Shown here: positions 6,290-60,632 of the stretch, piece after piece
How the letters are laid out: the number at the start of each line of letters is the position of its first letter
How positions within the stretch are numbered: position 1 is the stretch's first letter
Source of the DNA: Hormiphora californensis
Lineage: Eukaryota > Animalia > Ctenophora
Assembly: GCA_020137815.1 (NCBI GenBank)
Contig: CM035359.1
Coordinates: 3,658,001 to 3,722,000, forward strand
Direction of reading: 5' to 3'
DNA length: 64,000 nt
Notes under the pieces: generated by a model
Seen by the model: only the letters and a program-made list of their open reading frames with translations
Database searches by the model: none
Told to the model about the DNA's origin: nothing
Translations under genes and position numbers: made by a program

Positions 6290-6317
6290 AGAGTACGAGA
6301 GAGAGAGCAGAGAGGAG

Positions 6318-6359
<42 letters not shown>

Positions 6360-6363
6360 AAGA

Positions 6364-6449
<86 letters not shown>

Positions 6450-6672
6450 TAGAGGAGAGAAGAAGAGAGAGAGAGACGAGAGAGAGAGAGAGATAGTAGA
6501 AGAGGAGACTAGAGGAGAGCAGAGAGGATATATATCGAGAGAGAGTCGACGAGCGCAGAGCGCGAGAGACGATAGCTATCGTAGCCTAGAGATAGCTCTG
6601 CTATACTCTCTCCGATAGCTACTCTGCTCTCTCTCTCGCTCTAGCGTAGATGGATCTGCTCTCGTCTTCTCG

Positions 6673-6730
<58 letters not shown>

Positions 6731-6798
6731 AAAAATTTCGAAAAATTTCGATCGATACCCTGATTTTGGCAAATCTCTCTCTCTCTCTCTCTCTCTCT
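6290..6798. repeat. (GA)n/(CT)n microsatellite block
   Basis: Long degenerate GA run then CT runs; source of spurious ER-repeat ORFs. Confidence 0.95.
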
Positions 6799-8050
6799 TA
6801 GCAAATGGATCAAATGTTGACACACTATACATTGACATGAGCAAGGCTTATGATAAAGTCAGTCATAGACGACTATTAGAGAAACTAAGAGCTGCTGGAA
6901 TTGATGGCCAACTCTTAAACTGGATTGAACAATTCCTGACTGGGCGGACGCAAACAGTCATTGTTGAGGGTACTAAGTCTTACCCAACTGCTGTCCTCTC
7001 AGGTGTGCCCCAAGGCACAGTGCTAGCAAGCCTGTTATTCTTGGTTTATATGAATGATCTACCTGCGTTCATCAAACACTGTAAAGTTAAGATGTTTGTG
7101 GACGATGCAAAACTTCAGAAACCAATTAATACCCAAGAAGACCGTGATCTTCTCCTTGACGATCTCCATAATGTTAAAGAATGGGCAAATGTCAACCAAA
7201 TGGAGCTTAATGAGGAAAAATTCCAACTCCTACAACACGGTGCAAATGGAGAACTTAAACAGCCCTATGATACTGAAAACGGTATTAAAATCTCTGGAGA
7301 CGATACTGTCCGAGACTTGGGCGTACTGATTGATCCGGGTCTATCGTGGAAAGCTCACATAGCCGAGATCACTCGCAAAGCAAGCACCATGGCATCATGG
7401 ATCCTGAGAACTTTCAGGACCCGAGAAAAAGGCCACCTGCTACAGCTTTACAAAGCCTATGTACTGCCACATCTGGAGTACTGTTCGGCCCTGTGGTGCC
7501 CTTATGAGATTGGACAGATTGAGAAAATCGAAGCTGTGCAAAGATCATTCACCGCCCAAATACATGGGTGTAAGGAAATGGGCTATTGGGAAAGACTGGC
7601 TCACCTCGATCTCTACTCTCTCCAGAGACGACGAGAACGATTCAAAATTCTGGCTATATGGAAAATCCAGAATGGTTTAGTACCCAACCACTACAATATT
7701 GTGTTTCGTAACTCCCTGAGACATGGGCCAACGGCTGAGAGACCCATTGGCAAGTCTTCACGCAAAGGGGTGAACACAGCAATCTTTAATGGATTCACCT
7801 CCTCTGCCATAGGACTGTATAACTCGATACCATCACCGGTAAAGAATATGGAAACCTTTGAAGGAGCAAAATCCGCTCTAGATAAACATCTATCTAGAAT
7901 ACCTGACCAGCCCCCAACGAAGGGGTATCCCCGCCAGAATAATAACGGCATACTGGATTGGTCCAATGGCTCGTATACGAAATACAGTGACCAAGCGGAG
8001 TAACTTCTACTCTCCGCTGAACTCCTCCGAGGTACTACGAGGTAAGAGTA
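6799..8050 (+). mobile_element. 5'-truncated CR1/L2-group LINE, RT C-terminal part (ORF to 8003)
   Basis: VDTLYIDMSKAYDKVSH, SGVPQGTVLASLLFLVYMNDL, FVDD, RDLGV, PHLEYC..W.P, SLQRRRER and C-terminal LYNSIP motifs. Short GAGGTA-type repeats at the 3' end. Confidence 0.93.
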
Positions 8051-29670: not shown

Positions 29671-30865
29671 GAGAGAAAGAGAGAAAGAGAATGTGTGTGA
29701 GAGAGAGATAGGGAAAGAGAGAATCGAAGGCAGAGAGGGAAAGCAGATGCAGGCCGCTCATTGGGGTGGTGCCATCACGTGACGATCACGTGACCTATAG
29801 TTACAGAGGGGAAGAAAAGATAAGGGTTAGGGCGTGTGTGACGATCACGTGACCTAGAAGAGTTGCAACATGTCGCAGAGGGAAAGAAAAGATAAGCGTG
29901 TGCTGTTGCGTGTGCAGTAGTTAGGGCGTGTGTACTGTGTAGTGACGTAATGTTCACACTGTGTGCGTGTGACTAGAAAGTGTTTAATTTTTCACATACC
30001 ACTGCAGCGGTATTTTACTTTATAATTACTAGTGTTTTTGCAGTGGTCTAAAATTTCACAGTACACTTTAACCACCGGAAACAGTGTACTGTGAAAATTT
30101 AGACGACCGGTCAAAATTGTCTAATAAAAAATAGCTTTGAAGTTTGCAGAAAAAAAGATAAAATTGTCCACGTTCATTGCTTAACAATTAAAAAACAACG
30201 AGCGTGGAAAAACACGCTTCGATCACTCGCTGACGTACGCACGTGTCGTGTAAGCTGTTCCAAATGGGAAACTCACAGCTCTAATCGCTCCAACTGCAGT
30301 AATTCTATTGATACCACGTGAAGCGTTGCGGCGCCACTTAACCGGCCTGTTGTAGCATTCCCCCACAGTAACAGACACCGCTTTAATTTCTCTAACAGTA
30401 GGCAGCTAAAAGCAGGCTGATGCAGGCAGACAGCTCAAAAACTATGGTAGGCAGACTCTACTGCACTAACGGACTCTAAACACAAGGAGGACTCTATACC
30501 TAACCCTAACCCCTAACCTCGAACCCAAATAAGGGCCCTAAACGAGTATATAGGGGCACGGCGAACTCTCGCTTCCGGCCTAAAGGGAAAAAACCTGGAG
30601 AAAACAGGCATTCGTGCAGTCATTGTCTATTATAACTGCCGCGTCCCCCCTTTCAACTCTGTCTGGCTGGAGAGGGGCGAGAATGGGAGATAAAGATGGG
30701 GTAGCTATCACATGAATACCTACAACAATGGGAGAAAATTATGACACCTTTGACATATAACTGATAACAGGGGGGGGAGTTTGGCGGCCAACATCGGCCT
30801 GAATATAATTATGCAGTATTTTCAAAAAATATTTTGTCCGGATCTGAGGGGGCTCCAAAATACTA

Positions 30866-31820
30866 CAGTCGGACCCCGATTTACCGGAATCCTCGGGGGA
30901 AGCCATTTTGCCCGGTAAATCGGGGTGCCCGGTATATCGGGGTAGAGCATATTTGACCCATAAATCCTACTTTTGTCCAAAATTCTATACCAAGACACCT
31001 CTAACTGTACAGTACACATTTATTAATGACAATATGATCATTGCTTCTGTCATTAGAAATAGAAAATTTAAAAAATTTAGAAACTTTTTCTAAGGTAAAC
31101 CACCCCGACCAAGTCCGAATCGTGTTTCGAATCGGTATACATCTTATCGCATGTCCTGCCGCTAATTAGACGGTTCGAAACGAACCGATACGTGATACCA
31201 TGCCGAATCTGGGCACCTTCAGCAGGGTCAGGAAGTATCAAAGTTTCAAAATAACTTTTTCTCTGAAAATTTACGGGGAGCATCGATCAAAGCATTGATA
31301 ATGATTCTGTAAAATTTTGCAAAAAAAAAGTTATGAAGTTTTTCTAAGGTATACCAGCCACGTTCGAATCGTGTTTCGAATCGGTGCATCTTATCACGTG
31401 CCCTGCCGCTAATTAGATGGTTCGAAACGAACTGATACGTGATACCATGCCGAATCTGGGCACCCTAAGCGGGGGGAGGAAGTATCAAAATTTCAAAATA
31501 ACTTTTTCTCTGAAAATTTACGGGGAGCATTGATCAAAGCATTGACAATGATTCTGTAAAATTTTGCAAAAAAAAGTTATGAAATTAAGGTATACCAGCC
31601 ACGTTCGAATCGTGTTTCGAATCGGTGCATCTTATCTTGTGTCCTGCCGCTAATTAGACGGTTCGAAACGAACCGATACGTGATCCCCATTAGACCTAGC
31701 GAATTGCAAATGCAAGTTTACCAACCGGCGAAAATTTTCCAAAAAAAATCGGGGGAAAGAAATCCTCCCGGTAAATCGGGGTTCCGGTAAATCGGGGCCC
31801 GGTAAATCGGGGTCCGACTG
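30866..31820. mobile_element. pogo/Tc1-mariner-type non-autonomous DNA transposon (~955 bp), TA TSD
   Basis: TIR CAGTCGGACCCCGATTTACCGG, TA on both sides, internal ~240-bp tandem units. Highly similar to 35571-36546. Confidence 0.9.
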
Positions 31821-31924
31821 TAATAGTAATAGCGACAATTCTTGCGTCGGCATTTGTGTAAGAATTAGACATTTTACATATTGTATGAGTCATGATACAA
31901 AGTAAAATAAGCAGCTTTTCGAGT

Positions 31925-32250
31925 TCAACGATCTCAGATTGTTTTACAAGATTGTGTATGGTATGATTAGCATCACTGTCCCTCAGTACATTCAACCGAT
32001 CAACCCCAGCACACTCAGGGCCACCCGTCAGAATAGTGACATTCGTGACGGTCGTGACAGAACGACTCTAGTTTTCATGTCTGCCTACAATACGAACATT
32101 CATAGGGCTCTTAGGACTAGCTTTTTCACCGGGTCACTGACTTGTGGAATAAGCTACCCTACCCTATCAGACAGAGTGAATCTTTGACTGAGTTTGTCCG
32201 TCTCACTAAGAAACACCTTATTGAATCCATTGTACCCAGTAACGATCTAT
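31925..32250 (+). mobile_element. 3' fragment of a CR1-group LINE ORF2 (frameshifted)
   Basis: DLRLFYKIVYG...PQYI...LRATRQ...RTSFF, then LWNKLP in a shifted frame. Homologous to the C-terminus of the ORF2 ending at 34027. Confidence 0.7.
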
Positions 32251-33268
32251 AGTACACTCTACACCTCCCCCTCCCCCATCCCTTCCCACTCTGTTCATGT
32301 TCACAGTCCGAGATATGAGGCTGCTCCACCCTCGGGATAGCCGCCAGTCCGCCAGGTATTTTCTACCCCCTCTCTTTAGTACTTCAATTTCCGTGACGAG
32401 GCTTTTGCAGTATTTTATAAGCCTTCTATCAGGTTTTCAGAGCCCCTTAGCTGCAGCAGACGCTGTGTGGGGTCCCTAGTGTGTACGGTTTTTATGTGTG
32501 TATTGAATTCCTTAACTTTGTATGTATACCTAAAATAGTTCTTCCCAGTAAAAAATGGACGCTGTGCGGGAGGGAGAGCGCTCTACCAATATAATTGCTG
32601 TATATGCTCTCCAAAAACATCCACCAACACCACCTTCTATTCCTCTTTTTGTTCTTTTTAAAGGTTGTAGGTACATCGTAGAACCATTTATTTAATTCTA
32701 ACTAATCGAATAATTTGATACAACAGTAGGAATTGACACAGGCCAGGTCTTGATTTTGATACTCGTCCGAATCATCGAGTAGAGAATCACGTATCATGAT
32801 ATCTAAGTTAACTGGGGCGAACGGGTTTGCTAGTGTTTTTCTAAATATAGAAAATTTATTCTTTTTACTAGGCTCACAGATCTGCTAACTGTTATAGCTT
32901 TGGAGATCTGCTGACTTTGGTTAGCTTGAGAACTACTGAGTACTGACTTTGGAATTTAGCTATATACGTTGACATGTTCCTTGTCTGTCAGCTCTCACAC
33001 CGGGCCGAAGGCCCGGTGCGAGCTTACGCGAGCCCGAAGGGCGAGCGTAAGCTCAAGTGCCGATAGACAGACTGCGTAGCATGGCAATATATACGTTTTG
33101 GTTTCATCAATATCTCGACCAAAACGCAGAGTTCACGTCATCTGACTAGAAACTGGCCTATTATATTTGACCGCCTGCTTAGTCTCAGAATTTATAAATC
33201 ACTGAATGCTTTATCATTTACCCGACAGTTTGTATTAATAATATTTAATTCATAATTAAAACCGTTAT

Positions 33269-33423
33269 TAAAGTCGGATTTTTTGAAGTTGTCACCCCCC
33301 TTTTCGTGCGCGGAATGTTTTTGCGCGTCACATCACATGTTAACGTGTGGTGTGCGCGTCAAAATTGATAAATTTCACATGCGCGGTCATTTGGGGGTGA
33401 CAACTTCAAAAAATCCGACTTTA
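33269..33423. mobile_element. MITE with ~30-bp TIRs
   Basis: TAAAGTCGGATTTTTTGAAGTTGTCACCCCC...GGGGGTGACAACTTCAAAAAATCCGACTTTA. Confidence 0.8.
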
Positions 33424-33445
33424 TTATTTTTAGGACTCCATTACG

Positions 33446-33576
33446 ATGATAAAAACTACTCACAGTACCCTCCTGAAGATTCTTTACTTGATCGTCTACA
33501 CGATGGTGGTCATGACTCTAGGGGCACTCTTTCTTTCACACCCTATCTCGGGACCGGTGAAAAAAACTATATGTTC
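33446..33576 (+). pseudogene. 5' part of a carbohydrate sulfotransferase CDS (type II membrane anchor), separated from the rest by the LINE
   Basis: MIKTTHSTLLKILYLIVYTMVVMTLGALFLSHPISGPVKKTICS. Joins in frame through the ATGTTC duplication to 40619 onward. Confidence 0.8.
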
Positions 33577-34026
33577 TCATGATTTGATTGATTTGATTTG
33601 GAAAAGGATAAAAATCGATATATTTATAAAGACAATATCCCGGTTGGCTCCTATTGACGGAGTGTCAATATAGACGGAGCGCTTACACCTCAAAATACTC
33701 TAAAAAATTCACACACAGACAGTTCTCACACACTACGGACAAACAGACTAATACAGTATATTTTTAATAGGATAAACAAAATCTAATATGGCTGCTATAG
33801 ATAATATATTGATTATTTCCCCCTCCCTAGCCAGCCCCCAAAAATTCTTGTTTGTAAATGTCTTGTAATTAATTTTGTGATTAGATTCGCGACTGTGCGA
33901 TTGCTTGTTGTATAGTTTCAACTCTTCAACACCACACCAAAGAAATAAATAATTTGAAGTCCATGAGATAGGAAAGATTGATCTAAAGTTTAGAAAGTAG
34001 GTGAAGTCAATAGCACAGCCGCGAAT

Positions 34027-37000
34027 TTACGAATTTGGAATATTATTCCAGAGGTAATCTTTGAGCTTGGCCACAAAGGCGTCATGAGAATCTAGGCATC
34101 GTAGTTCATGCGGAAGGTTATTCCATTCCACATGGATACGGTAAAAATAACTATGTTTAAAAGCGTCAATATTAGGGTTATGTGTGCAAATGATGTCTGT
34201 TTGGTCCCGGTTTGTCTGTTGTCTAGTTGTACGCCTGTCGTGTCTGTCAGGGATGTATTTGTGAAGGAACATTGGAAGTTTTAGGGATGAAGATCCGTAG
34301 AATATCTTATGAAACAGTTTTAAGTCATTATAAAGGAACCTTTCGGTAATAGGAAGAATCTTTCTTTGTTTAAGTTTACTGACATACGTTTTCCAATCAT
34401 AGCTGAGCTCCATTTCATTATTTATCCATTTTAATGCACGTTTTTGGAGCTTTTCGAACTTTTCAATACTAGAGGCTGAAACTGGTCGCCATATCTGGCT
34501 GCAGTGTTCAAACAACGAACTAACAAGACTGACATAAAGTGTTCTCCTCTTTAGAGGGGAATCAACCAGAGCACTAGTTCTCTTGACTAGGCCTAACCTC
34601 TGAGACGTTTTAGAAATTATCATGTTTTGGTGTTCTAGAGGCGATAATTTTCTATTGGTGATCACCCCCAGGTCAGTTTCATTTGTACATTGTTGAATCT
34701 CACTACTTCCTAAGTAATATTTTAGGTTAACAGGCTTATGCTTCAAGGTACATCTAAGAAGTTTACATTTATTAGGGTGGAACTTCATTTTATTTTTCAC
34801 ACTCCACTCAATCAATCTATCAATATCAGGCTGGAGACTATCATTTTCATTCTTAATCGTCCTCCAGATTTTTAGATCATCTGCATATAGCTTTATATTG
34901 GTTTCTCCTTCATCCCCAATGGCCTCAACTATATCATTTATAAATAGAACAAAAAGGAATGGACCGAGGATGGATCCTTGAGGGACTCCACTCTTAACAT
35001 TAGACCATTCCGAGAATTCACCATCTAATGCTACTCTCTGTCGACGTCCAGATAAGTACGCTTTAAGAAATTGCAACATTTTACCGTTTATGTTATACTG
35101 GACTTTAAGTTTTTCAAGTATGACATCGTGTGATACGCTGTCAAAAGCCTTTTGAAAATCAAAATATATAATATCTGTTTGCAAGTGTTGGTTTAAATTT
35201 ATTGCTAGCTCACAGTTAAACTCGATCAGTTGGGTCGTACATGACTTCAGTGGTACGAACCCATGCTGATGAGGTGTAACTTTCTCCAGACAAGCCCTAT
35301 ACAGGCGCTCTCTAACCAACTTTTCGAAGACCTTCATAATTAGACACGTAAGAGAAATCGGTCTATAATTCTCTACATTAGACTTATCTCCTTTTTTGTG
35401 GACTGGCACAACATTTGCATTTTTCCACTCAGTTGGAATAGACCCTTCATCAAAAACTTTGTTAAAAATTAATACTAGTGGATATGCCAATGATTTGTGA
35501 CATTTTTTCAAAACTATACCGTCTATATTATCTGGGCCAGTGGCCTTGGATGCATCTAATTTTCTTAATACAGTCGGACCCCGATTTACCGGGATCCTCG
35601 GGGGAAGCCATTTTGCCCGGTAAATCGGGGTGCCCGGTATATCGAGGTAGAGCATATTTGACCCATAAATCCTACTTTTGTCCAAAATTATATACCAAGA
35701 CACCTCTAACTGTATAGTATACATTTATTGATGACAATATGATCATTGCTTCTGTCATTAGAAATAGAAAATTTTAAAAATTCAAAAAAAATTGTAAAAA
35801 CTTTTTATAAGGTAAACCACCCCGACCGAGTCCGAATCGTGTTTCGAATCGGTGCATCTTATCGCATGTCCTGCCGCTAATTAGACGGTTCGAAACGAAC
35901 TGATACGTGATACCATGCCGAATCTGGGCATTTTAAGCGGGGTGAGGAAGTATCAAAGTTTCAAAATAACTTTTTCTCTGAAAATTTACGGGTAGCATCG
36001 ATCAAAGCATTGACAATGATTCTGTAAAATTTTGCAAAAAAAAGTTATGAAATTTTTCTAAGGTATACCAGCCACGTTCGAATCGTGTTTCGAATCGGTG
36101 CATCTTATCACGTGCCCTGCCGCTAATTAGACGGTTCGAAACGAACCGATAGGTGATACCATGCCGAATCTGGGCATCCTAAGCGGGGTGAGGAAGTATC
36201 AACATTTCAAAATATCTTTTTCTCTGAAAATTTACGGGGAGCATCGATCAAAGAATTGACAATGATTCTGTAAAATTTTGCAAAAAAAGTTATGAAATTT
36301 TTCTAAGGTATACCAGCCACGTTGGAATCGTGTTTTGAATCGGTGCATCTTATCACGTGTCCTGCCGCTAATTAGACGGTTCGAAACGAACCGATACGTG
36401 ATCCCCATTAGACCTAGCGAATTGCAAATGCAAGTTTACCAACCGGCCAAACTTCGAAAATTTTCCAAAAAAAATCGGGGGAAAGAAATCCTCCCGGTAA
36501 ATCGGGGTTCCGGTAAATCGGGGCCCGGTAAATCGGGGTCCGACTGTATATCTACAACTTCATCAAAGTGAAAAGTTTCGTTGTTAAAATCATTATCGTG
36601 GTTTCTATCAAAATCAATTGGTGTGCTATACGTACTGGCTTGTGTGAACTGTTTACAAAAAAAATCATTAAAGGGCCTAAAAACCCAACTTTTATTTAAT
36701 TATTTTGAACACTACATCGTAACAAGCATGCTATTGGAGTCCCAAAAAACATAGGTTCACGCCCCACCCGCCCAATGTGAGCCCAGGGGGAGCCCCTCAA
36801 GTTGGGGCCATTTGGGGTCCCCTTGTAAATGCGCTTGTACTCCTTGAAATGCTAACAATATGATCCTCTCTCAAATATAAAATTTAGGATAGAAACTATC
36901 CTTGTGTTTTAGTAGATTTCATAATCTTTCTCATCAATTATTATTTAAGCATATCAAAACTAGGAGAAAAATTACCAGAATACAGAGACAAGAAAGATTA

Positions 37001-39017
37001 TGTACTCACCTGAAACATAAGGCTAAATTTTACCCAAAACTTCAAATTTCAGAGAGGATCATATTGTTAGCATTTCAAGGAGTACAAGCGCGTTTACAAG
37101 GTGACCCCAACTGGCCCCAACTTGAGGGGCTCCCCCTGGGCTCACATTGGGCGGGTGGGGCGTGTACCTATGTTTTTTGGGACTCCAATAAATAAAATTT
37201 GGGTTTTTAGGCCCTTTAAACATTTTGCATTTTTGTTGACTACTTTTTTCAGAGTTATCCTCGTAATGAACTATATCAGGGACTCTAGTGCTGCTAGTTT
37301 TTGATTTCACATGTTTAAAAAACTTTTTGGAAATTGCAGCTGTAGAGGCAGACTCATCAATGGAGGAGAGTTCTAGAAAGTGTGTTTCTTTCTCCCTTGA
37401 CGCTTTTCTGTACTCTGCCTCCATACAAGTAAATACATTTTTTAGGGAAATATCATTTGGAAATTTCAGAGAACCTTTTCTAGAATTATCCATTGACCTT
37501 TTTAACTGTCTCAACTCATCATCGTACCAGGGTGGTTGAGATCCTATTTTTACATTAACTAATGGTACATGGTGTCTTAGGGTAATATCTAATTTTGATT
37601 TAAATTTCTGAAGAGATTGCTCGGCCCTGAGGTGTTTGAATTCCTTAGTCCAGTCATACCGAATCAGTCCCTCATTAATCGCATCCCAATCAGCTTTCTT
37701 GTAAGAAAACTTTTTAGCCGTCTTAAACTTGGGTCTTATCTTTTTGATTTGCACCTCACATTTAATAGTGAAGTGGTCAGATTTGACTAAACAATTTTCT
37801 TCTACCGATACATTGGAAAAACACGAACTATTATTTGTGAGAATTAGATCTAATACATTTCCATCCCTGTGTGTTGGTGCGTTTATTAACGAACTCATAC
37901 CCAGAGATGTAAAAAGGTGAGCAAAGCCTTCGTGTATACTATTGCTCGATACTGGGTCATCCCAATCTTTAACCGAACTTAGATTGAGATCCCCGATGAT
38001 AGCTAGGTTTTTATATTTTCTAGATAGGCGTGTGTAGTACCGCTCAGTTTCTTCAAGACAATCTGACCCCGAGTAGTCATACCTGTAGAATGTTGAGATA
38101 CATATCGGGGTCAGGTTTTTTGACTTGAGCAGTATGGTGACAATAGGCAGATTTACCTTGTCCTTTACCTGATCAACTTCAATACCCATGTTATTCTTAC
38201 ATAGAATCATAACTCCTCCCCCACCCTTTTTATCATACATTTCCATGTCCCTTTTAGTTCTATCTTTTCTGTATATTGTATAGAACTGATCGGACACTAA
38301 TTCCCCATCATTGACATGCTTGTTCAACCACGTTTCATTTAATACTACAATTTCTGGCTCATAAGTAAACAAGTATGCTCGGAGATCAGAGAGTTTAGAT
38401 ACTTGAAACTGGGGCTGATCACCACTAATTGATTGCATATTTATGAGACCATTAACGTTGCAGTACACCACACTGATTTTTGTTTTTGGTTCAGTAGGCC
38501 CAGGATTTACAATACTGGGCTGGTGGATAACAATAAGTGCTTTTGCTAGACTCGAAAGAAAGATTAATAGTACGACTAGTCGATACCTAACTATGATTTT
38601 GGAACAGGTGTTCCCTATTTTCCCCATACTTTTGAATATCACCAGGGTTAACACACAATTAGCATACCAAATGTAATGCTGGTTGATACTCTTACCGACT
38701 TCTTCTCGGCCTGTTTCCATACATAGTTCTCTACAGGACAGAGAGGAAGTACATCTGGAAATAGAGCCTAAAAGAATAAGTATTAGTATACTGTAACTTA
38801 GGTAGAGAATCAAATGAAATGGTGATATTGATGATGTTTGTCTGTACTGTCGGTCAAGGGTTTTGTTAGTAAACATTTTTCTTTTTCCACCCCTCCCCCC
38901 TGCAAACCTCCCAATAGTTTGTCTGTACTGTTCAGCACTTATCATTGTGGGGGTTTTGGATTTTGGTTTCGGCACTAAGGGTACACGGAGGGTCTGTTGG
39001 TTGGGGTAATAAAACAA
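34027..39017 (-). CDS. LINE ORF2 (hydrophobic leader, APE endonuclease, reverse transcriptase) interrupted by two MITEs
   Basis: APE: YCNVNGL, LNETWL, RKDR..GGGV, GDLNL, THRDGNVLDLILTN, SDH. RT: KATGPDNI, NYRPISLT, QHGF, DFQKAFDSVSH, SGVPQGSILGP, YADD, DLGV. Removing 36672-37219 and 35571-36548 leaves 3465 bp (1155 codons) with junctions KMFNDFFCK and VVDILRKLD. Confidence 0.93.
35571..36546. mobile_element. pogo/Tc1-mariner-type non-autonomous transposon (976 bp) in LINE ORF2
   Basis: TIR CAGTCGGACCCCGATTTACCGGG, TA TSD at 35569-70 and 36547-48. Confidence 0.92.
36672..37215. mobile_element. Kolobok-like MITE (544 bp, TTAA TSD) in LINE ORF2
   Basis: TTAA|AGGGCCTAAAAACCCAA...TTGGGTTTTTAGGCCCT|TTAA with long imperfect arms. 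RR..YY termini with TTAA fit Kolobok better than piggyBac (CC..GG). Confidence 0.8.
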
Positions 39018-39066
39018 CTTCTCCCCCCAAACATATTATATATTATCAATGCAGCAAAATCAGCAA

Positions 39067-40614
39067 TCAGCGTAAAACTTCGTTATAAATCAGGTCAGTT
39101 AAGACCGAGTAACCATATTTATTCAAATGCACACCATCCCTACAATAAAGTGATGAGTTGAAAAACAAATCACGCGTTAGGAAATCAGCCATCCAACTCA
39201 CAAAACTGCAATTCATGAGTTGGGACACACAATTTACAATTTTGTTGTACATGGTAACATTAGAGACCGTATATGAGAAGTCTCCTCTCAGGGGAAGGAC
39301 ATGTGTAATCACTATCTCCGGGTCCCCATACAACCGTCTAATCTGCCTCACTAGGTGGCATAGTGCCCCTTGGAGTCGGTTCTTCGTTGCGCTGTTCTCA
39401 CAGAAGTTCTTATCAAACCTAATATCGTTCGTACCATAGCAGATAACAACCTTCTCAAAGTGTGCCTCAGGGTGGCTCTGGTGGTACCTGGACAGCTCTT
39501 CAAACGCTGTAGTACCCTTCCATTTCGAATGGGGCTTCACAATCCTTGCACCCGACACAGAGATATTCTCAAGCCCCCGGATCTCAGGTACCCATTTGGA
39601 CAGGCTCGTGCCCAAGAGCAGAGTAGTGGGGCTCCTAGGGTTGACGGCATGTCTCAAAGAAGGGACCACTCCAGAAGGGGTAGGAAGTAGGGGTGGTCTA
39701 ACGGAGGGTACCGGCACGTTCGCCACTGGGGGAGGAGGAGGAGGAGGAGGAGGATCCGGTTGGTAACCATCCCCATTAGGAGGAGGAGGGGAATGCTGGA
39801 CTCCTATTGTTGCCCTCAATGGTGGGGAGGGCAGTCTCCGTGGGCTAGGTGGTGGTGGTGGTGGTGGTACCAGATCTGTTGAGGGGAGCTGTGGGGTTGC
39901 TCTTCTGAAGGACAGAGCATACCGCTTCTCAGTAGACTCGTTCTTGACCGCCCGGTGCTTCAGGACCTCCTGACATCCTGGGTGCATGACGTAGGCGGAA
40001 CCAGCAATCAGTTCCAGGGTGAGAGCTGGCGTGGTCCTTCCATCTGCTTTGTAGGGTAAGAAATCCACTTTACCCGGCGCTCCGACAGTTAACACAACAA
40101 TCGGGGAGGACTTATCCATCGTCACCTCAAAATCGTTGTGATAACCCACACCGACACCCGTGTCGTATCTTGTGACGAGACACGAATTTAGTCTCCATCC
40201 TTGCATAGTGTTCATAGTGTTCATGATCCGCTCTACAACGGGGAATTCCTCAAGGGCGACTGGGGTCAACTTATGTTCAGCGAGCTGTTGTCCCCGTTTA
40301 CTGAACCAACTATAGGGCATTCCTGTGGACGTTACCCAAGTGTTTTTCTCTGTCAAATCCATGACCTCACCATGTAGCAAGTTGAGGTCATCTTCGCCCA
40401 CATAATCCTCGACTACCTCCACATACCGGTTAGGATCCTCAGCTGTGGTGCAGTCTGGTACTCTTCTGGCTAATTCGACGTTGAGGTGTTCAACCAGTCT
40501 GTCTAGTTGGATGAGCTTAAGGTCGATGTCGTTATTGTTTATCAGTACCCCCTCACTTGCGATATTGGAGAATGGGATGGGGGACTTCGGACTGGGTGGG
40601 GGTAGTGTGGCCAT
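39067..40614 (-). CDS. LINE ORF1: AlkB-like 2OG-Fe(II) dioxygenase, Pro-rich linker, SGNH/GDSL esterase (probably 5'-truncated)
   Basis: AlkB: LNSCLVTRY, GYHND (HxD), PIVVLTVG, L..GSAYVM..GCQ..LKH, RYALSFR. SGNH: LLLGTSL, SVSGARI, YGTND, RDGVHLN..GY. Confidence 0.9.
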   Translation of the reverse strand: MATLPPPSPKSPIPFSNIASEGVLINNNDIDLKLIQLDRLVEHLNVELARRVPDCTTAEDPNRYVEVVEDYVGEDDLNLLHGEVMDLTEKNTWVTSTGMPYSWFSKRGQQLAEHKLTPVALEEFPVVERIMNTMNTMQGWRLNSCLVTRYDTGVGVGYHNDFEVTMDKSSPIVVLTVGAPGKVDFLPYKADGRTTPALTLELIAGSAYVMHPGCQEVLKHRAVKNESTEKRYALSFRRATPQLPSTDLVPPPPPPPSPRRLPSPPLRATIGVQHSPPPPNGDGYQPDPPPPPPPPPVANVPVPSVRPPLLPTPSGVVPSLRHAVNPRSPTTLLLGTSLSKWVPEIRGLENISVSGARIVKPHSKWKGTTAFEELSRYHQSHPEAHFEKVVICYGTNDIRFDKNFCENSATKNRLQGALCHLVRQIRRLYGDPEIVITHVLPLRGDFSYTVSNVTMYNKIVNCVSQLMNCSFVSWMADFLTRDLFFNSSLYCRDGVHLNKYGYSVLTDLIYNEVLR

Positions 40615-40618
40615 GTTC

Positions 40619-41759
40619 CGTGCTCTTAGTATGCCATACTAAAACACATTGGCTAATTCGAGGTCATAGACCTCAAATTAATTTGTTTAAAGTAGTGCCG
40701 AAAAGCTTGAAACATCAGTACAATGAAGCAGAACCTGAGTTCGAAGATATACAAAAAAGTTCTGTGTTAGAACCGACTAACCCCAGCGAAGTACCGCCTG
40801 AATCCGCCAAACAGTGTTCTACTGATCGTGAGATATTTATAGAATTAGTTGACAAGCGCAGAGAATTAGTCCAGGAGCGATGCAAGAGTCTGAAGCAATA
40901 CAGACAAGACTCCGTCCCAAGTGAAAAATGGTTTCTGGACAAGATAGGAAATCAGGGGATTGTTTATTGCCCCATTTTCAAAGCTGCCAGTTCTTTTACC
41001 GAGGCCCACTTTTGTCCGCCATACTTTAGTGCTAACATCTGTGCTGATATTGGGGCAAATAAGTGGAGAACGAAGGGATTCAACAAAAAGAATGCACCTC
41101 CGGGAACTCCTAAACTGTTAACCGTGCGAAACCCTTTCGATCGAGTTCTATCGGCGTATCGTGATAAAATCCAGGCTCTAGAACCGAACAACCCCTACAG
41201 AGATCCCATTTTTAATGAAATAGTTCGGCATCATAGATTTATATCCTTCGAAGATCGTAGCAGCAGGGAAAAATTATTAAACGAAGCCAAGGAGATGTCT
41301 AAAACAATCCCAAATGAGAGAGGTGTAAGTGTTTATGTGGAGGGAGCTACCAATCCTTATCTCAAGCCTATATCGGCAACTTTCCCAGAGTTCATCAAGA
41401 ACCTGCTAACAGATCACTGGCGGAACGAGCACTGGGCCGAGATGACTGAGCAGTGTGCGCCGTGTAAAATGGACTATGAATTTATCCTAAAAACAGAGGA
41501 TTACATGTGTGAGTTTCCCATGTTTTTGGATGTAATCGGAGCATCGGACATCAAAATTGATAACAAAAAGAAGTCAAATATCAACACTGCAAGGAAGGAC
41601 TCTCAGTATGCAGATGTGTTTGAATATTATGGACAGCTGCCTGATGATACCATTGATGCATTTGTGCAGTGGTTCAAAGATGACTGTTACTTATTTGATT
41701 ACGATTGTGAGAGGTTGGCTCGTAAAATTAAGGAGTGGAAGAGTAGAAACAAGCTCTAA
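40619..41759 (+). pseudogene. Catalytic part of a carbohydrate sulfotransferase (CHST8-14/Sulfotransfer_2 family), cut off from its start by the LINE
   Basis: 5'-PSB IVYCPIFKAASS, 3'-PB LTVRNPFDRVLSAYRDK, TFPEFI, NEHW...CAPC.MDYEFI.K.E, C-terminal D..LFDY. Confidence 0.88.
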
Positions 41760-41989
41760 AGTCCGTATCAAACCAATCGCATGTAACATCAATTTAATTA
41801 TTCTACACATATCATTATCATTGCATGCTGTAAATATAATCAAGCTTTATACAAAATATGAATTTTATAACCAAATTCGTGATTTTATCTGAAATGAAAG
41901 TGAGGTAGGAGATATCATGCACAGTGGGTAATTATGCCGCTTGATGGTCGTATAGCAAATATAAGAAAATCTACTGTGAAGGGCATCGA

Positions 41990-42625
41990 TAACCCTGGGC
42001 AATTACTGTCAATATCGGGAGAATCCAACAAGAGAGTAGATGACTTCAAATATCTTGGTAGCTGGGTAGCCAACTGTGCTCGTGATATACTAGGAAGGCA
42101 AAGGCTTGGGTGGCATGTCATAAGCTCAAAAAGATTTGGAACTCAAGCCTTAAGGACGAACTCAAGATCCGTTTGTTCGTGGCATGTGTTGAATCCGTCC
42201 TACTTTATGGCTGTGAGACATGGACACTCACCAAAGATCAGGAGCGTAGTCTAAATGGGACCTATACCCGCATGCTCAGGATTGCACTAAACAAGAACCA
42301 GTATCTCCTGAAAATGACAAATTGGGAACTCTATTATAGTGGCCTGCCAATTCTTAGTACCAAGATTGCTGAGTGGCGGCTTAGACACGCGGGCCATGCA
42401 CTTCGACACCCAGAACTAACTTTACACTCAGTGTTGTTATGGGAACCCTCTCATGGTAAAACTAAGAGAGGGAGACCTAAACTTACCTTCGTGGACACCA
42501 TACGAAGGGACACAGGAGTGAAAAGAATAGACGAGATAGCTTCAATGATGGCTGACCGAGACTTATGGCGAGAACTTACCTACCGTGTTCGAGAATACCA
42601 CTCGCCATAAGTCAAGTAAGTCAAG
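41990..42625 (+). mobile_element. 5'-truncated RTE-clade LINE fragment with a frameshift
   Basis: VDDFKYLGSWV, then KLKKIW...KIRLF.ACVESVLLYGCETWTL...RMLR, RL..AGH..R, RGRP. 3' tail TAAGTCAAGTAAGTCAAG. Confidence 0.9.
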
Positions 42626-42984: not shown

Positions 42985-43431
42985 GTCCCAATACAGCTCT
43001 GCCACGAATTGCTACTGTGTTCCCCGCCTTCTAAAACAGGTCCCTGTCCCAATACAGCTCTGCCACGATTTGCTACTGTGTTCCCCCACCATCCAAAACA
43101 GGTCCCTGTCCCACTACAGCTCTGCCACGAATTGCTACTGTCTTCCCCCGCCTTCTAAAACAGGTCCCTGTCCCAGTACAGCTCTTCCACGAATTGCTAC
43201 TGTGTTCCCCGCCTTCTAAAACAGGTCCCTGTCCCAGTACAGCTCTGCCTGCCACGAATTGCTACTGTGTTCCCCCGCCTTCTAAAACAGGTCCCTGTTC
43301 CAATACAGCTCTGCCACGAATTGCTACTGTGTTCCTCCGTCTTCTAAAACAGGTCCCTGTCCCAGTACAGCTCTGCCACGAATTGCTACTGTCTTCCCCG
43401 CCTTCTAAAACAGGTCCCTGTCCCAATACAG
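42985..43431. repeat. ~61-65-bp minisatellite, about 7 copies
   Basis: Unit GTCCCA(A/G)TACAGCTCTGCCACGAATTGCTACTGTGTTCCCCGCCTTCTAAAACAGGTCCCT. Confidence 0.95.
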
Positions 43432-44477
43432 TCTTTCGAAAGACAGGTTTATCCCCGGCCACTCCCTCTGGTAATGTAAACTGAGTCCCCCTCCACACTC
43501 AACGTAACATTACTACCACCTGCAACCGCGGCACTCATCTCCAGGTTTGTAGTTGTAACAGTCTGTACTGTAGAGTTGGTTGCTACCATACTAGCAACCC
43601 CCTCTACTGTGGTCAGCGGTGCCATCCTTCGCTTGGGAGGCAGCCAACGCGTCGCCATTTACCTGGGGGATATACAGGGGTTACCATGGTGTTTCTAGTT
43701 CGGTTACCATGGTTACCATGGTGTTGGCTCATGTGCAGCGAGATGCTGACGCCATGAGCCAACATTTAATTATATTATACTAGTAGGCCCGTTCGCCCTA
43801 CGGGCGAATTTCGGGGAAATGGTAGCTGGATTAGGGAACGCTGACATCACCTGCACCATCCGTTCCTAGCCTATCTCTCACTTTCTCCCTACCCATGTTG
43901 TTGTACGCTCTGGGCTTCCTGACAATGTCAAGGTGCGAATTTAAGAGATCAATGTCATGGGGGTGCACTGCTGTTCCAGAAACTCATCACGTGAAAACTT
44001 GGCAGTTATGTAGCCGATTCGGAGATTTCTATTTTCGACTTGAGTAATCGCCCTTGGGCGACGTTGGGTAAAGCTATCCGTAGTCGTTTATTGTCTCGCT
44101 TGAACACTTTGGCGTAATCTGTCATATTCTCTAGCCTGCTCCCTGACAGCAGCAGATCTTCCGGACCCAGATGACCGTTGCCGAATAGCGCTTGGGGTTG
44201 AAGAGTTAGACATCAGGACAAAAGTAAAAGAATGCACGTGCAGAATTGAATTTCCCTTAGTACCCAAAACTGCAACTGGGAGTGAGGGTTCTAAGTTGCT
44301 CTAATAATTGCACGTGCAGGTGTAGTTGCTAGGTGATGTAGCACTGACAATTTGAATAGTAAGTAGTATGATTGTCGGCATGTAAGCACAATGTAAGTTG
44401 AGACACACGTGCGTTTGGTGCAGAGTGGTGTGAGCAAGAAACAGAGGGAGAGATAGAGAGAGAAAAGAGAGAGACAG

Positions 44478-44555
<78 letters not shown>

Positions 44556-44737
44556 TACCTTTGATTACCTTTGACAAGGTTTAGCTGAAGTAGCTTGGAA
44601 TCCACTTTAGTAATGGACCCGTTGGAATGTTCCTGCTGGTCTAATAGATAACAACAGGAACACTAGCAAACAAAGAAGGCAATTTAATGAAATAAATGAA
44701 AAGAAGAAACTTAAATGAATAGCACTCACAGTAAGTA

Positions 44738-44889
44738 CTACTGTGTCCCCGAGGAGACCTCCACCACCTCGCCTCCTTTGATCCTAAACGACTTCCCAGG
44801 GCTCCGCTCCTTCTCCTCTTTCAACTTTTTCACTAGGACCGCCCGAGCCGCTCTCTCCTCAGAAGTAAGGTCGGGAGAGATATAAACTC

Positions 44890-44891
<2 letters not shown>
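44738..44891 (-). mobile_element. Fragment resembling the C-terminus of a CR1/L2-type ORF1
   Basis: RVYISPDLTSEERAARAVLVKKLKEEKERSPGKSFRIKGGEVV, cut off by a CT microsatellite. Confidence 0.6.
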
Positions 44892-44978
<87 letters not shown>

Positions 44979-45003
44979 AGAGAGAGAGCGTCGCTCTCTC
45001 TCT

Positions 45004-45134
<131 letters not shown>

Positions 45135-45152
45135 CTTCCTCTCTCTAGAGAG

Positions 45153-46600: not shown

Positions 46601-46820
46601 TTAATACCATGTATAGTCCTGAAAAGTCATTCCCAACCTGTCCCAGAATTGGAAAATGATTCTCAGAATCTCACAGCACTGGAAAGTGATTCTCAAAATG
46701 CCACAACACTGGAAGTGGAAATTGATTCCCAAAACCTCACCACACTTCCAAATTATCTACAGAATTTCACCACACTGAAAAATGATTCCCAGCCTCTGGA
46801 ACGTGGTTCCCACCCTGTAG

Positions 46821-48819
46821 TGGGCCGATCTGGACACCGTATGAGCTAGTAAGGGGTGACATTACCACCTTTCCACCGCTTGGAGAGGACCTGGAGCCAG
46901 TCTCATTGTACCTCATAGCCAGGCAGGGGAGCAGCAACATGGGCGACCAGGCTACCGGAATGCAGGAGTTAGCTAAAAAGCTTGCGGAGGAAGCACCGTT
47001 ACCATGGTTACTGGACTGGCAGGGTGGCAACTACAAGAGTGATGATTACTTGGTTCCAGAGGGAATTTTGGAGCTGTATCACCTCGCTAAAAGGTGGAAG
47101 AAGGTGTTTCCTGAGCTGTTTCCAGCTTACTACCCGACCCTGTATAACACGCGTGTAACCCCTGGTACCAGCCAGAGTGCTTCTTCCTTTCTGTCTGGAT
47201 TGTTCGAGGGAGAGGGGCCGTTATCCCCTGCCTCCACAATTGATAACATTTCATGGACGGGGTTCCAGCCCCTCTCCATACAGGACGATGAGGGGATTCT
47301 CTCAATATTCGAGGATTGTCCAGCCTACACCGACCAGAGGGACCTGTTTCAAGATGCGTTTGAGAGGTTCCATGCCACAGCACAGTACAGCTACAGGCTC
47401 AAACTGATGGTGCCGCTTAGCGAATCATTGGGATTCCAGGTGCGAGGAGAGGATGTTATAACGTTGTTTTCATTGTGCGCTTTCTCCCTCGTCTCACCCA
47501 GCGAGTCAAGCGAGGCGAAGTTCTGCGAGTTTTTCACGGCAGACATGTTGGAAATCCTCAATTTCATACTAGAACAGGAGCAGTATTTCTCTACTTATTC
47601 AGGGAACCCCATCGCAACCGAGCTGGCGTGTGTGCTGGTTGAGGATGTTGTTGAAAGCTTGCGGAGTGACACCCCTATAAACCTCAGGTTTACCCACTCT
47701 ATCCTCCCTCTCGTGGACTATCTGGGGCTGTATGAGGGTGTGGAGGGTGCCTGGTGGAATGAAGAGATGGGTCTACTGAATCTTAGTACAGTAGAGCCCT
47801 TTACAGCTAATGTGGCTTTCTTGTTGCTGAAGAATAAAACCAACGGCGAGGAGACAATCAAGGTTGGTCTATGTTTTTTTCGGTGTCTTTTTCTCTATGT
47901 CCAATAGGGGTTGCTAAGTTGAAAAATATCGCTTTCGAACATTATGTCTGGTATTCAGTTGGTAATTTTCTACTGATATTCGAAGTTTCAGCCCAAACGG
48001 TTGAGCCACTTTGAATCGCAATTAGCCACTTTTGTGCTGTCTGGCGCCGCGACCCATCTGAGCACACTGTCGCGTACTCAGATTAGGGTCTGGTGTCGTT
48101 TTTTCATAATATCGCGTTTTCAAAATTTCGCTGCTCATATTTTCGCAGCAAAACTTTTTCTTTTTTCAAAAAGTTTTTGCTACAGAACCTTTTCTGTTTT
48201 CTAAGAAGTTTTACTTTTAATAGAATCCCCAATCAAATTGGGGTCTGGCGCCGCCAGACAGCTTTTGTGACCCTTATTAATATTTTCGGTGAAAAATCGG
48301 GAAAAATCGAAAAAAAAATTTGAAATTTTAAAATTTCAAAACACGGAAATTAGTCCCTAGAACATCTCAATACACGTGCAAAACTTTAAAATTGTGTATT
48401 TTTAATTTTCAACTTAGCAACATTGTCCAATGGACATTGTCCATGCGTGTCTTTCTCTCTCTGTATCCATGCGTGTATTCAGTTGAGTCTTTAATTTAAT
48501 TTATGTCTATCCCGCTCTGTTTGAACCTACATTCCCAATGCCTCCCTTCCAGGTGTTTGCCAATGAACGCGAAGTGACTCTGAGAGGAGGGGGAAGGACT
48601 CTCTCTTCCTTAGAATCCCTCCTAAACACCTGCGACAGAGAGGAACTGTGCAGCCCAGAGGAGACAGAATCGCCCATAGACGAGGGGACAGTAACGGACT
48701 TGATAATTGCTGACACGGTGGTCCTAAACTCCAATGTGTTTTTGGGTATGATGGTAATGTGTTTTATTGCGGTTATACTGTCAGGGGTCATACTACTACT
48801 ACTACTACTACTACTCTGA
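46821..48819 (+). CDS. MINPP1/histidine acid phosphatase-like protein (exons ~46821-47862 and 48553-48819; upstream exons unresolved) with C-terminal hydrophobic anchor
   Basis: TPY...P....EPVSLYLIARQG (RHG position), L...G.LEL.HLAKRWKKVFPELF, SASSFLSGLF, LFSLCAF, FCEFFT, LRFTH, PFTANVAFLL. Splice IK|VFANER with GT at 47863 and ccAG at 48552. Confidence 0.75.
47906..48423. mobile_element. Intronic MITE, possibly hAT-type
   Basis: TIR GTTGCTAAGTTGAAAA/TTTTCAACTTAGCAAC; 8-mer TGTCCAAT on both flanks. Confidence 0.6.
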
Positions 48820-49829: not shown

Positions 49830-53596
<3,767 letters not shown>

Positions 53597-55036: not shown

Positions 55037-56217
55037 CTAAACTCCAGTCTGGCCAGTAGAACCCCGAGCAGAACCTCGAGTAGAAGCCCTTCCAGATACC
55101 AAACCTGCATCTCCCCCCTCCTCTATAACAACCGCAGCCCTCGACCTACTACTAAACCTACTACTCAGTTCACTGCTCAATCTAATTAACCTGGTCGAAA
55201 TCTTGACTCCTGTAGTACCACCCAACACGGACTTCATCCAAATCCGCATGGGCTGAGATCGATAGGACCAGGTAATCGTATTAGCTGCTGAATTTAACGG
55301 CACAGTAAGGACGGCGATAGCAAAGAATGGGTGGTTATAGAAATCCCCCCGATAATATGGACCAAAGAAATCCATCACAAAGTTATCTAACTTTGAGTTT
55401 GGCGAATGTAGATACGTACGGATTATAAAGGCGGTTGAAAAGACTGTAAAGGGCACATTAAGGACAATATAGATGATCGTTAGTATTATGATAGTTTGGG
55501 AGGCCTTCCTCCCAGACCCCCTGTTATTCGCACCGGTTGCTGTATTTCGTGTCATGGCCCAGACAGAGATGAAACAACTGATGGTCACGATGAAGAAGGG
55601 GACGTACATGGGGATAGTATCACGTAGCAGAGAGTTTCCTATTGTAGTTATTTCCTTGACCTCACTTGTAACATTCAGGTACAGCCAGGTGTGTAGAGGT
55701 AGTTGGCGGAGAACCAGAAGGGCAGGGTTTGGTAGAGGATCGTTAGAGTTGAATAGACACTGATGATTATCAGGATTGTTTTGATTCGTGGTGGTAGTGC
55801 AAATGGGTCTACAATCGCTCTAGTCCTGGTAACACTGAGTACTGCCATCAGGAACACAGATACCCGGACGACTGTATACCAAACCACACCGTGAAAGTTA
55901 CAAAATATCACACTTTCAAAACTCTCGGCATTCCGGTGAAGTAGGAGGCTGGCTGTGATTGGTATAAAGCTCACCAAAATAACCACATCCACCGCACAAA
56001 TTGCAAGGTAAAGTGTGTTTACAAGTCCCTTTCTGGCGTTTTTACCGCTCAAGAAGTATGTCAGCTGAGTCACGGCTACAGGGAGTCCTACAATTATTGT
56101 TAGTACAGATAGGATTGAGAGGGTGGTGTTGACGGGGTAGAGAGATGGTGGTGGCTCTCCTGGGGAATTGGTTAAAGGATGCCATACGTAGAACGTAACA
56201 GCATTATCATCTGACAT
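55037..56217 (-). pseudogene. Intronless class A (rhodopsin-like) GPCR with a frameshift near 55690
   Basis: TM1-4 in ORF 55675-56217 (LYLAICAVD, FCNFHGVVW, LSVTR). TM5-7 in ORF 55037-55609 (PFFIVTISC, YIVLNVP, LNSAAN). The frames differ within ECL2. Confidence 0.8.
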
Positions 56218-59310: not shown

Positions 59311-60632
59311 ATAGCTGAATAAACCACGAATTGGAGAACTAGATCTGGGGTAATAATCCAAAATGAGCTGCTGCTACAATTACCTCCTTAAATACAGTTT
59401 GACAAAATTAACACTAATTAACATTTATTGAACAGCTGATTTTCTTTGTTCATTAACAAAGAAAAAGACGGCACATTCCTCACGTAGCGCCTTCGTGTAT
59501 CCCCTGTCAGCTGCCAATGCTCTGATCATGCAGTTCTCGCACTCTATTTGAAAGAGATGAGAATGAGGCTAATGCTCTGACAGTATCCCTTTGTATCGGG
59601 TATCCTTGTATTGTTGCAACAGCACAAGGGTATCCTACTTCCCTTATTGTTGAACAATAGAAAAAAGGCCACGGGATATAAATAGGATACAAAAGCTGGT
59701 GCTACGTGACTATCTACGTGACAGCTACATGAGGAATATGTCGCCTGACTATTAATAGACCGTACATATCCGTACATATCCGTAATTACAAGCACTGATA
59801 TTTTTCGCTGTAGTTTCCTATTCCTTTTCATCAGTGCAATATTGTTGTTTTCTCCTCCCGCCGCCTCACTAGAACGCAACCAAAATCAATTCTTTATCTT
59901 ATCAGGAACAGGAGATATAAGCCAAAACGGATAGCACACGCAAATCAACTTTTTTAAATGCACGGCCCCCTGCCCCAGCTTGATTAAAACTTTACACGCT
60001 GTTAGATATACCGTTAATTTTCTATTTTGGGAGAAATTTATCTCCCGGTAAATTAATGATTAATTGAGGTATTAATTGGGTTCTCCATGTCAACATTTTA
60101 TAGATGTCTGCAATTCACCACAGTTAAAAATACGAATTTCCTCCTTTTAAAAGGGCAATGATCTGGATTGGAAATCACTTATATATCGACCACGGCTACA
60201 TCTGCATTGATCATTTATCTAGGAGAAATTATAGCGAGTTTCAAAAAGTTTTTTTTCCTAGATAAATGACCAATGCACAGCTATAAGCTGTTTGTGAGTT
60301 GTGGTCGAATATTTCCAATATATCTCATTTTGAGAACCGCTGCACAGAGCATTGGCCCGGCAGGTTACCAAGGTAGCCCCCAGCTCGATTCTATCACCAA
60401 GCTACCCAGATCATTATCTTCATGAAGATAATGATCTGCAGGTATTTGGGTGATAGGCAATAATTCCTCTGCAAACCACTTTTTCAGTATCTAAACCCTG
60501 AATGTTGTTGAATGCACCACTCCTTCCCCCATGGCACATAGCTGTTTTCATTTTCTACTTTTGAATTATATTTGTTTGGGCTTCCGTGATGAATACTTAA
60601 AGTTTCATACTCAACTCTTTTAGTTTCACGAT

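Follow-up and report, generated by a model that had tools for sequence, protein, structure and literature searches.

An AlkB-type dioxygenase domain joined to an SGNH esterase in the ORF1 of LINE retrotransposons from probable comb-jelly hosts

Introduction

What might a LINE retrotransposon gain from carrying, within its first open reading frame, a domain of the AlkB dioxygenase family next to an SGNH esterase? The question is raised by a LINE copy in 64,000 nt of Hormiphora californensis DNA (contig CM035359.1, positions 3,658,001 to 3,722,000; here called the window). The initial annotation, made from the letters alone, had proposed that ORF1 of this element is an AlkB-SGNH fusion and that the element brings its own demethylase into its ribonucleoprotein particle (RNP). 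Here, we delimit the copy, describe its relatives and the type of its AlkB domain, and weigh what that domain may do.

Results

A dead copy of a young LINE family

The copy has the properties of an APE-type non-LTR retrotransposon: an ORF2 with endonuclease and reverse transcriptase (Exo_endo_phos and RVT_1 in Pfam), a simple-repeat 3' tail, a short target-site duplication (TSD) and dispersed copies, and a repeat search of the window found no long terminal repeats at its ends (Table 1). It is inserted in a host sulfotransferase gene, and its excision in silico restores a host ORF of 404 aa that starts with a hydrophobic segment and contains a Sulfotransfer_2 domain. An open host frame is by itself weak evidence for the junction, as 3261 excisions leave one, a 6-bp alternative ranking top; the depth edges decide. 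The 5-bp junction was chosen because depth is back to flank level at 33587 and the multi-copy contigs stop at 40683-40689. The annotation's "one TSD-bounded element" is right in that a direct repeat flanks the copy, but the duplication is only 5 bp long and identical to the repeat unit of the 3' tail. An exact search for repeats of at least 7 bp at the element ends gave chance repeats only and no convincing TSD. An 8-bp repeat (33687/40670) was rejected as TSD, since it sits within the multi-copy part.

Table 1. Features of the LINE copy and of the host gene that it interrupts. Positions are those of the window.
Feature	Position	Strand	Details and basis
ORF1, 515 aa: N-terminal helix, AlkB, Pro-rich linker, SGNH esterase	39067..40614	-	ORF list, Pfam, structure prediction
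ORF1 N-terminal region	40441..40614	-	helix (residues 30-51) predicted with low confidence; 9 codons fewer than other copies
AlkB domain, ALKBH2/3 type (profile and predicted fold)	39892..40440	-	residues 59-241; H159, D161, E163, H220, R231, R237; lid Y101/W103
Pro-rich linker	39631..39891	-	87 aa, 34 of them Pro; disorder predicted; relatives share a median of 14% identity
SGNH esterase	39070..39630	-	S337, G355, N396, D493, H496; related to ZfL2-1 ORF1 esterase 4C1B
ORF2, 5' part	37216..38945	-	two hydrophobic segments, degenerate 2A-like NPGP (38507), APE endonuclease
ORF2, short middle part between both inserts	36547..36667	-	
ORF2, 3' part	34027..35568	-	reverse transcriptase (YADD)
Whole LINE copy	33587..40680	-	5568 nt once both nested inserts are subtracted
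Target-site duplication, element's 5' side, 5 bp	40681..40685	.	equals the tail repeat unit; edge uncertain by a few bases
Target-site duplication, element's 3' side, 5 bp	33582..33586	.	equals the tail repeat unit
Short 5' UTR, 66 nt in this copy	40615..40680	-	junction analysis and contig ends
3' UTR	33587..34026	-	ends in a short (AAATC)n-type tail; sequence
Nested insert, 548 nt	36668..37215	.	terminal inverted repeats, TTAA flanks; no counterpart in other copies
Nested MITE-like insert, 978 nt	35569..36546	.	TA duplication; 94% copy at 30861-31822
Host sulfotransferase gene, 5' part	33446..33586	+	ATG and hydrophobic signal-anchor-like segment; excision analysis
Host sulfotransferase gene, 3' part	40686..41759	+	Sulfotransfer_2; Pfam

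The window copy is dead, two small transposons having split its ORF2. The family to which it belongs is young and multi-copy, because contigs near-identical to the window were found, at several-fold the depth of the flanks. In four DNA runs, which come from two studies and no more than three samples, contigs pass directly from 35568 to 36547 and from 36667 to 37216, skipping the inserts, and show near-identical copies in the same organism that have neither of them; one such contig differs from the window at 7 of 1724 letters. Contig depth in run X1 was about 200-340 over the element, higher at its 3' end, and about 30 at flank positions, although depth does not equal copy number. The window copy also lacks 27 nt at 40506 that are present in contigs of two of the four runs and in the relative P0001. 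Folding of the 3' UTR was no better than that of shuffled sequences (z of -0.33), and Rfam gave no match.

As annotated, ORF1 precedes ORF2 on the same strand. ORF2, described earlier as an APE-RT frame, is split here by the two inserts; once they are skipped, it reads through 1160 codons without a stop. The reported spacing of 50 bp was not recovered: ORF1 ends 31 nt before the open frame and 121 nt before its first ATG (38945).

The shorter insert is palindromic, with 16-bp inverted ends beginning AG and TTAA flanks, and resembles what we take to be a Kolobok-type non-autonomous element. The longer one belongs, with 30861-31822, 53029-53114 and 63288-63366, to a high-copy MITE family with TA duplications and internal 246-nt repeats. 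Very high contig depth in the bins 40525-40825 and 33000-33601 suggests short high-copy repeats. The sulfotransferase gene, which the LINE insertion knocks out, is single-exon, and raised depth and many variant letters across it suggest paralogues. Pieces of other non-LTR retrotransposons lie at 6645-8003, 31918-32231 and 41904-42610 (an RT match, an RT tail and DUF6451, respectively). The window further contains a tandem repeat of about 52 nt (43000-43430), GA/CT microsatellites (44460-45150), a histidine phosphatase (46786-47907), a 7TM fragment (55037-55819) and a long LDLa-repeat ORF (60624-63362).

ORF1 joins AlkB and SGNH domains in a large family

Both domains of ORF1 scored above their Pfam cut-offs, 2OG-FeII_Oxy_2 with an E-value of 4.6e-14 (53.5 bits, cut-off 31.2) and Lipase_GDSL_2 with 2.9e-10 (41.4 bits, cut-off 32.9), and Pfam found no RRM in the protein. 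The fusion is thereby confirmed; moreover, the Fe(II) sites, the RxxxxxR motif, the Pro-rich linker and the SGNH blocks previously noted are all at the expected positions, with the codons of the iron and 2-oxoglutarate (2OG) ligands at 40140 (H159), 40134 (D161), 39957 (H220), 39924 (R231) and 39906 (R237).

Seven relatives that combine the two domains, at 30-82% identity, came from a word-based search. When 1.84 billion representatives were searched with a profile, 203 clusters (50% identity) matched at E-values up to 1e-30. Among the best 150 of these, 124 have both domains, always with AlkB first, 20 have AlkB alone and 6 SGNH alone; many of the single-domain proteins are short or cut. Pfam missed the AlkB domain of L002 and P0133, and our purpose-built profile found it in both. 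We counted ligands in 258 pooled proteins, 247 of whose domains cover the core, in a set with some redundancy and at least one row mis-binned by the automatic grouping. Of the 247 AlkB domains, 242 have an intact set of all five ligands (H, D, H, R, R). Among 66 full proteins, median identity was 33% for AlkB, 35% for SGNH and 14% for the linker. Judged from residue conservation, the AlkB domain is under long-term selection for catalysis, because its ligands stayed intact while the linker drifted to less than half its identity. The SGNH Ser, Gly, Asn, Asp and His are kept in 66, 66, 65, 60 and 66 of the same 66 proteins.

The relatives fall into three architectures. In group A, which includes the window element, a helix is followed by AlkB, the linker and SGNH. 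Group B proteins often have a PHD finger (matched by pattern in 33 of 90 and also found by Pfam) and a long helical region, with AlkB directly joined to SGNH, and their ORF2 has an N-terminal PHD-like finger. The group B esterase has DxxH in 83 of 90 proteins (GDS, in 90 of 90, is there by construction of the set), and the profiles of both groups match 4C1B, with E-values of 1.7e-8 and 2.6e-4. Group C has two AlkB domains, intact in 16 of 16 cases (eight proteins: P0078, P0080, P0082, P0086, P0094, P0095, P0098 and P0110), and includes KAL5265523.1 of Mnemiopsis, a fellow cluster member of which continues into APE and RT. A dimer prediction for ORF1 residues 26-248 of P0001 scored 0.07.

Eight of 11 metagenome loci consist of an AlkB-ORF1 followed by an APE-RT ORF2; two of the others stop soon after the start of ORF2 (one being a near-copy of another locus) and the third is an unrelated virus-like contig. 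Together with the 203 clusters, the 124 of 150 proteins that have both domains and the intact ligands, these loci show AlkB to be a stable module of LINE ORF1 under selection.

The AlkB domain is of the ALKBH2/3 type

The AlkB profile scored highest with ALKBH3 (87 bits) and ALKBH2 (77), followed by ALKBH8 (43) and E. coli AlkB (34); neither ALKBH5 nor FTO was among the 35 PDB matches at E-values up to 0.1. The model of the domain (pLDDT 97) has the double-stranded beta-helix fold and the nucleotide-recognition lid. Its best fold matches were ALKBH3 (Z 20.0, rmsd 2.3, 172 aligned) and ALKBH2 (Z 19.3), and the top ten were all of the AlkB family, which agrees with the ALKBH2-3-like reading of the annotation, as do the Tyr-x-aromatic of the lid and the acid at H+4. 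ALKBH6 (Z 18.1), FTO (17.9) and ALKBH5 (16.9) follow just 2-3 Z below. By profile and predicted fold taken together, the domain is of the ALKBH2/3 type and appears not to be ALKBH5/FTO-like.

Positions that would read the base are largely kept. The glutamate at H+4, which we equate with D135 of AlkB, is present in 239 of 247 domains and in 141 of 141 of group A, and it aligns with the ALKBH3 residue that was replaced by Cys for the active-site cross-link of structure 8JNK. D135 binds N6 of A as well as N4 of C, and m1A repair requires it (PMC11065319). The lid tyrosine is found in 125 of 141 group A domains and its partner is Trp, Phe or Tyr in 112. In the tandem proteins the H+4 Glu is kept in 10 of 16 domains only, which suggests that one copy may have changed substrate.

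The arginine 12 residues before the lid tyrosine is absent from the window copy; a nearby Arg is present in 21 of 114 group A domains and in 84 of 87 of group B. Residue H+3 of the window copy is Phe (as in 15 of 141 in group A), not Asp or Asn. The F1 hairpin is 7-12 or more residues shorter than in bacterial ALKBH2/3-like proteins and likewise short in the three RNA-virus AlkBs compared. This hairpin enables ALKBH2 to act on double strands, and its deletion from ALKBH2 or ALKBH3 kills demethylation, as reported in PMC2965238. The domain is not basic (19 K+R, 25 D+E); the loop after the distal His is mildly basic in group A (median +2), and in group B the loop that corresponds to RKK of ALKBH2 is acidic (median -3). 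Thus, the domain resembles the ALKBH2/3 subgroup, yet with its short F1 and, in group A, its mostly missing lid arginine we do not class it as an orthologue of ALKBH2 or of ALKBH3.

Two LINE lineages and their hosts

The ORF2s of groups A and C are 36-58% identical to each other and those of B 42-59%; between the two sets identity is 23-34% (partial alignments). The AlkB-SGNH module is, by these comparisons, on two distant LINE lineages, whose RTs are 23-32% alike. The RT motifs suggest what we presume to be a CR1-like element for group A and a Crack/Daphne-like element for group B, and the degenerate NPGP before APE fits elements of the CR1 group.

ORF2 of groups A and C starts with a leader of 120-180 residues with one to three strongly hydrophobic segments (38945-38496 in the window; also L002, L003, L004 and P0183). 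In five of six examined, the leader ends in P/S-S-x-x-N-P-G-P directly before APE; the motif, absent from L001, is 2A-like but degenerate, lacking the D-x-E of active 2A peptides. A putative membrane-anchored ORF2 leader thus adjoins, in one element, an ORF1 esterase of the lipid-binding type. A group B ORF2 (L006:2377-6231) has additional PHD fingers after the RT domain.

The family members with a named organism are all from ctenophores, two from Pleurobrachia bachei and one from Mnemiopsis leidyi, and Ctenophora is the commonest phylum recorded for the Atlas clusters. These are likely a large family of LINEs with comb-jelly hosts. A tree of 65 AlkB rows, 53 of them LINE domains, with eukaryotic ALKBH2/3 left out, gave a support of 99 to group B and of 94 to A and C combined; all LINE domains lay on one side with a support of 67.6, a value compatible with one capture of AlkB or with two. 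A sister relationship of LINE and viral AlkBs did not appear in this tree. With the same profile, pre-selected Bacteroidota AlkBs scored 107-110 bits and RNA-virus AlkBs 44-61. A pattern scan of prokaryote genomes for an AlkB-SGNH protein gave 14 stretches, none of them confirmed, and scans of viral contigs gave none in 5 and then 3 in 38, those three being single AlkB domains. The nearest non-LINE look-alikes in the Atlas are giant-virus and phage AlkB clusters, a lead only. L008, a gene-dense 30-kb contig that looks giant-virus-like, has two separate AlkB genes (1516-2235 and 6248-6853), whose products have an M-x-P-G-C-Q motif in common with group A.

Relation to known systems

ORF1 of the window resembles the type IV ORF1p of zebrafish ZfL2-1 (PDB 4C1A/4C1B), as presented in portions of PMC3905857 and PMC4120745, in its C-terminal SGNH esterase with intact catalytic residues, putatively helical N-terminus and lack of a Pfam RRM match, but it has an AlkB domain between the helix (predicted with low confidence) and the esterase. 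A coiled coil precedes the esterase in type IV proteins; in the window ORF1 the prediction for this part is the low-confidence helix at residues 30-51. Metcalfe and Casane place esterase ORF1s in vertebrate CR1/L2 groups only, within their set.

The closest printed precedent for the AlkB is, as far as passages of PMC9289625 describe it, a Ty3/Gypsy element of Phalaenopsis, also a retrotransposon with an AlkB-family enzyme whose ligands are intact. That enzyme, however, is encoded by a separate ORF of an LTR element in one orchid genus, derives from ALKBH5 and was shown to be an m6A eraser; the LINE AlkB, known from sequence, is fused into the ORF1p of non-LTR elements, is of ALKBH2/3 type and occurs in hundreds of divergent families on two RT lineages. 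Plant RNA virus AlkBs are of the same subgroup, have a short F1 and the N-S-C-L and H-x-D-x-E motifs, and are also part of a larger replicon protein, but sit in the replicase and are often inactivated, according to passages of PMC2553587; LINE domains almost never are. Human ALKBH3 and ALKBH2 and the bacterial ALKBH2/3-like AlkBs share the ligands, the lid aromatics and the H+4 acid and include the best profile and fold matches; the LINE domain differs from ALKBH3/ALKBH2 in its identity of about 22% (structural alignment), its shortened F1, the lid arginine mostly lost in group A and the fused esterase. TET/JBP enzymes of fungal DNA transposons are likewise 2OG-Fe(II) nucleic-acid dioxygenases kept by transposons, but of another enzyme family and another transposon class; the excerpts of that study report no TET-bearing retrotransposon (PMC12730594).

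Literature searches on AlkB/2OG domains in retrotransposons and on ctenophore elements yielded no AlkB in a LINE ORF1; ctenophore LINEs are probably deposited in Repbase, where such a domain may be annotated. Look-ups of main-text terms found neither AlkB nor oxygenase in PMC4120745, PMC13343379, PMC3708506, PMC3894237, PMC3905857, PMC6338049 and PMC6431247, and no AlkB in PMC12730594 or PMC3417536; 12 of 15 passages of PMC4738411 named no transposon-borne AlkB; and the supplements of PMC3905857 (readable files) and PMC4120745 named no oxygenase in any ORF1 type. The AlkB-bearing ORF1 class is real and conserved, and apparently undescribed.

Discussion

The explanation that we favor, and to which we give about an even chance, is that the ORF1 AlkB strips m1A and m3C from the element's single-stranded RNA within the RNP, letting reverse transcription read through. 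Both methylations prevent base pairing and stall reverse transcriptase. ORF1p would coat the RNA that encoded it, and the AlkB would oxidise N1-methyl-A and N3-methyl-C using Fe(II), 2OG and O2, the methyl groups having come from chemical alkylation or from host enzymes; we infer catalytic activity, RNA as the substrate and action in cis. The esterase may retain the lipid or membrane role proposed for ZfL2-1, and AlkB could supply the RNA-binding fold absent from esterase-type ORF1s, which have no folded RNA-binding domain in the account given in parts of PMC3905857.

The choice of m1A/m3C is favored because of the H+4 acid and the best profile and fold matches to ALKBH2/3, and RNA because F1 is short as in RNA-virus AlkBs and the plant-virus enzymes, which repair m1A/m3C, favor RNA, as stated in sections of PMC2553587. 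A selected function is suggested by a module kept in two RT lineages and duplicated with both AlkBs intact. Against the m1A/m3C-RNA reading, deletion of F1 abolishes demethylation by ALKBH2/3, so the substrate may have changed where F1 is short; most of group A has lost the lid arginine; and the domain is not basic. The fold alone would be a poor guide to subtype, with ALKBH6, FTO and ALKBH5 so close below. We also counted against it that one in 20 sequencing runs containing the stretch is recorded as RNA (share 0.07). As most LINEs are mobile without AlkB, the benefit must be conditional. For the demethylase of the initial annotation, removal of m1A/m3C is thus the best inference from an ALKBH2/3-type sequence, and its other part, m6A unmarking or escape from silencing, is less supported.

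The latter possibility deserves a fuller account. AlkB could be a counter-defence eraser of a host silencing mark, m6A on RNA or 5mC/6mA on DNA, and a lineage-wide, long-kept module would suit an arms race. The m6A demethylase encoded by orchid Gypsy elements is active (passages of PMC9289625), fungal DNA transposons carry TET/JBP (excerpts of PMC12730594), and weak 5mC oxidation by ALKBH2/3 is mentioned in part of PMC11065319. But the orchid enzyme derives from ALKBH5 and the LINE AlkB apparently does not, neither ALKBH5 nor FTO being listed among the 35 PDB matches; an acidic residue such as that kept at H+4 disfavours m6A, according to the same portion of PMC11065319; and the AlkB elements are still CpG-poor (observed/expected 0.40-0.62, against 0.60-0.77 in host genes and another RT of the window, a weak test). 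We consider this role unlikely. Unlikely, too, is that AlkB repairs DNA, either single-stranded cDNA or the target site opened during target-primed reverse transcription. The lesions would include 3mC, a side product of DNA methyltransferases. ALKBH2 works on DNA and ALKBH3 accepts single-stranded DNA too (passages of PMC11065319), the PHD fingers common in group B point to chromatin, and the group A loop after the distal His is mildly basic; set against this are the shortened F1 finger, used on duplex DNA, the acidic group B counterpart of the RKK loop, and a host whose own ALKBH2, if it possesses one, would cover DNA.

Alternatively, the group A enzyme may have changed its substrate, hydroxylating a protein, a lipid or an unusual base, perhaps together with the esterase and with RNA as the scaffold. 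The lid arginine missing from most of the group, the short F1, the H+3 Phe of the window copy, the neutral to acidic surface and the invariable order of AlkB before SGNH in all 124 proteins having both would fit such a change, and group A's retention of the base-reading positions (lid Tyr, its aromatic partner and H+4 Glu) speaks against it; we hold it to be improbable. That AlkB is a passenger or a one-off chimera without a role for the element is hardly credible: the window copy is dead and single-domain proteins exist among the best matches, but 203 clusters less than 50% identical to each other, the nearly complete set of intact ligands and eight loci with a linked APE-RT rule it out.

With plant viruses and orchid Gypsy elements as the earlier cases, these LINEs are the third kind of RNA-based replicon to have recruited AlkB independently. 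A second ORF1 enzyme, of known chemistry and intact in hundreds of families, makes it possible to test directly if retrotransposition is limited by RNA methylation, as damage or as marks; the LINE ORF1 esterase is dispensable in cell assays, as described in part of PMC13343379. Compact, divergent AlkBs may also find use in clearing RT-blocking marks before sequencing. In its boldest form, which we regard as doubtful, the proposal is that comb-jelly LINEs of two lineages have an undescribed class of ORF1, the AlkB-esterase, duplicated in some, that strips an m1A/m3C mark deliberately placed by the host on transposon RNA against reverse transcription. If true, it would mean that host and transposon compete over RNA methylation in the earliest-branching animals, an arms race for which a genetic handle is at hand.
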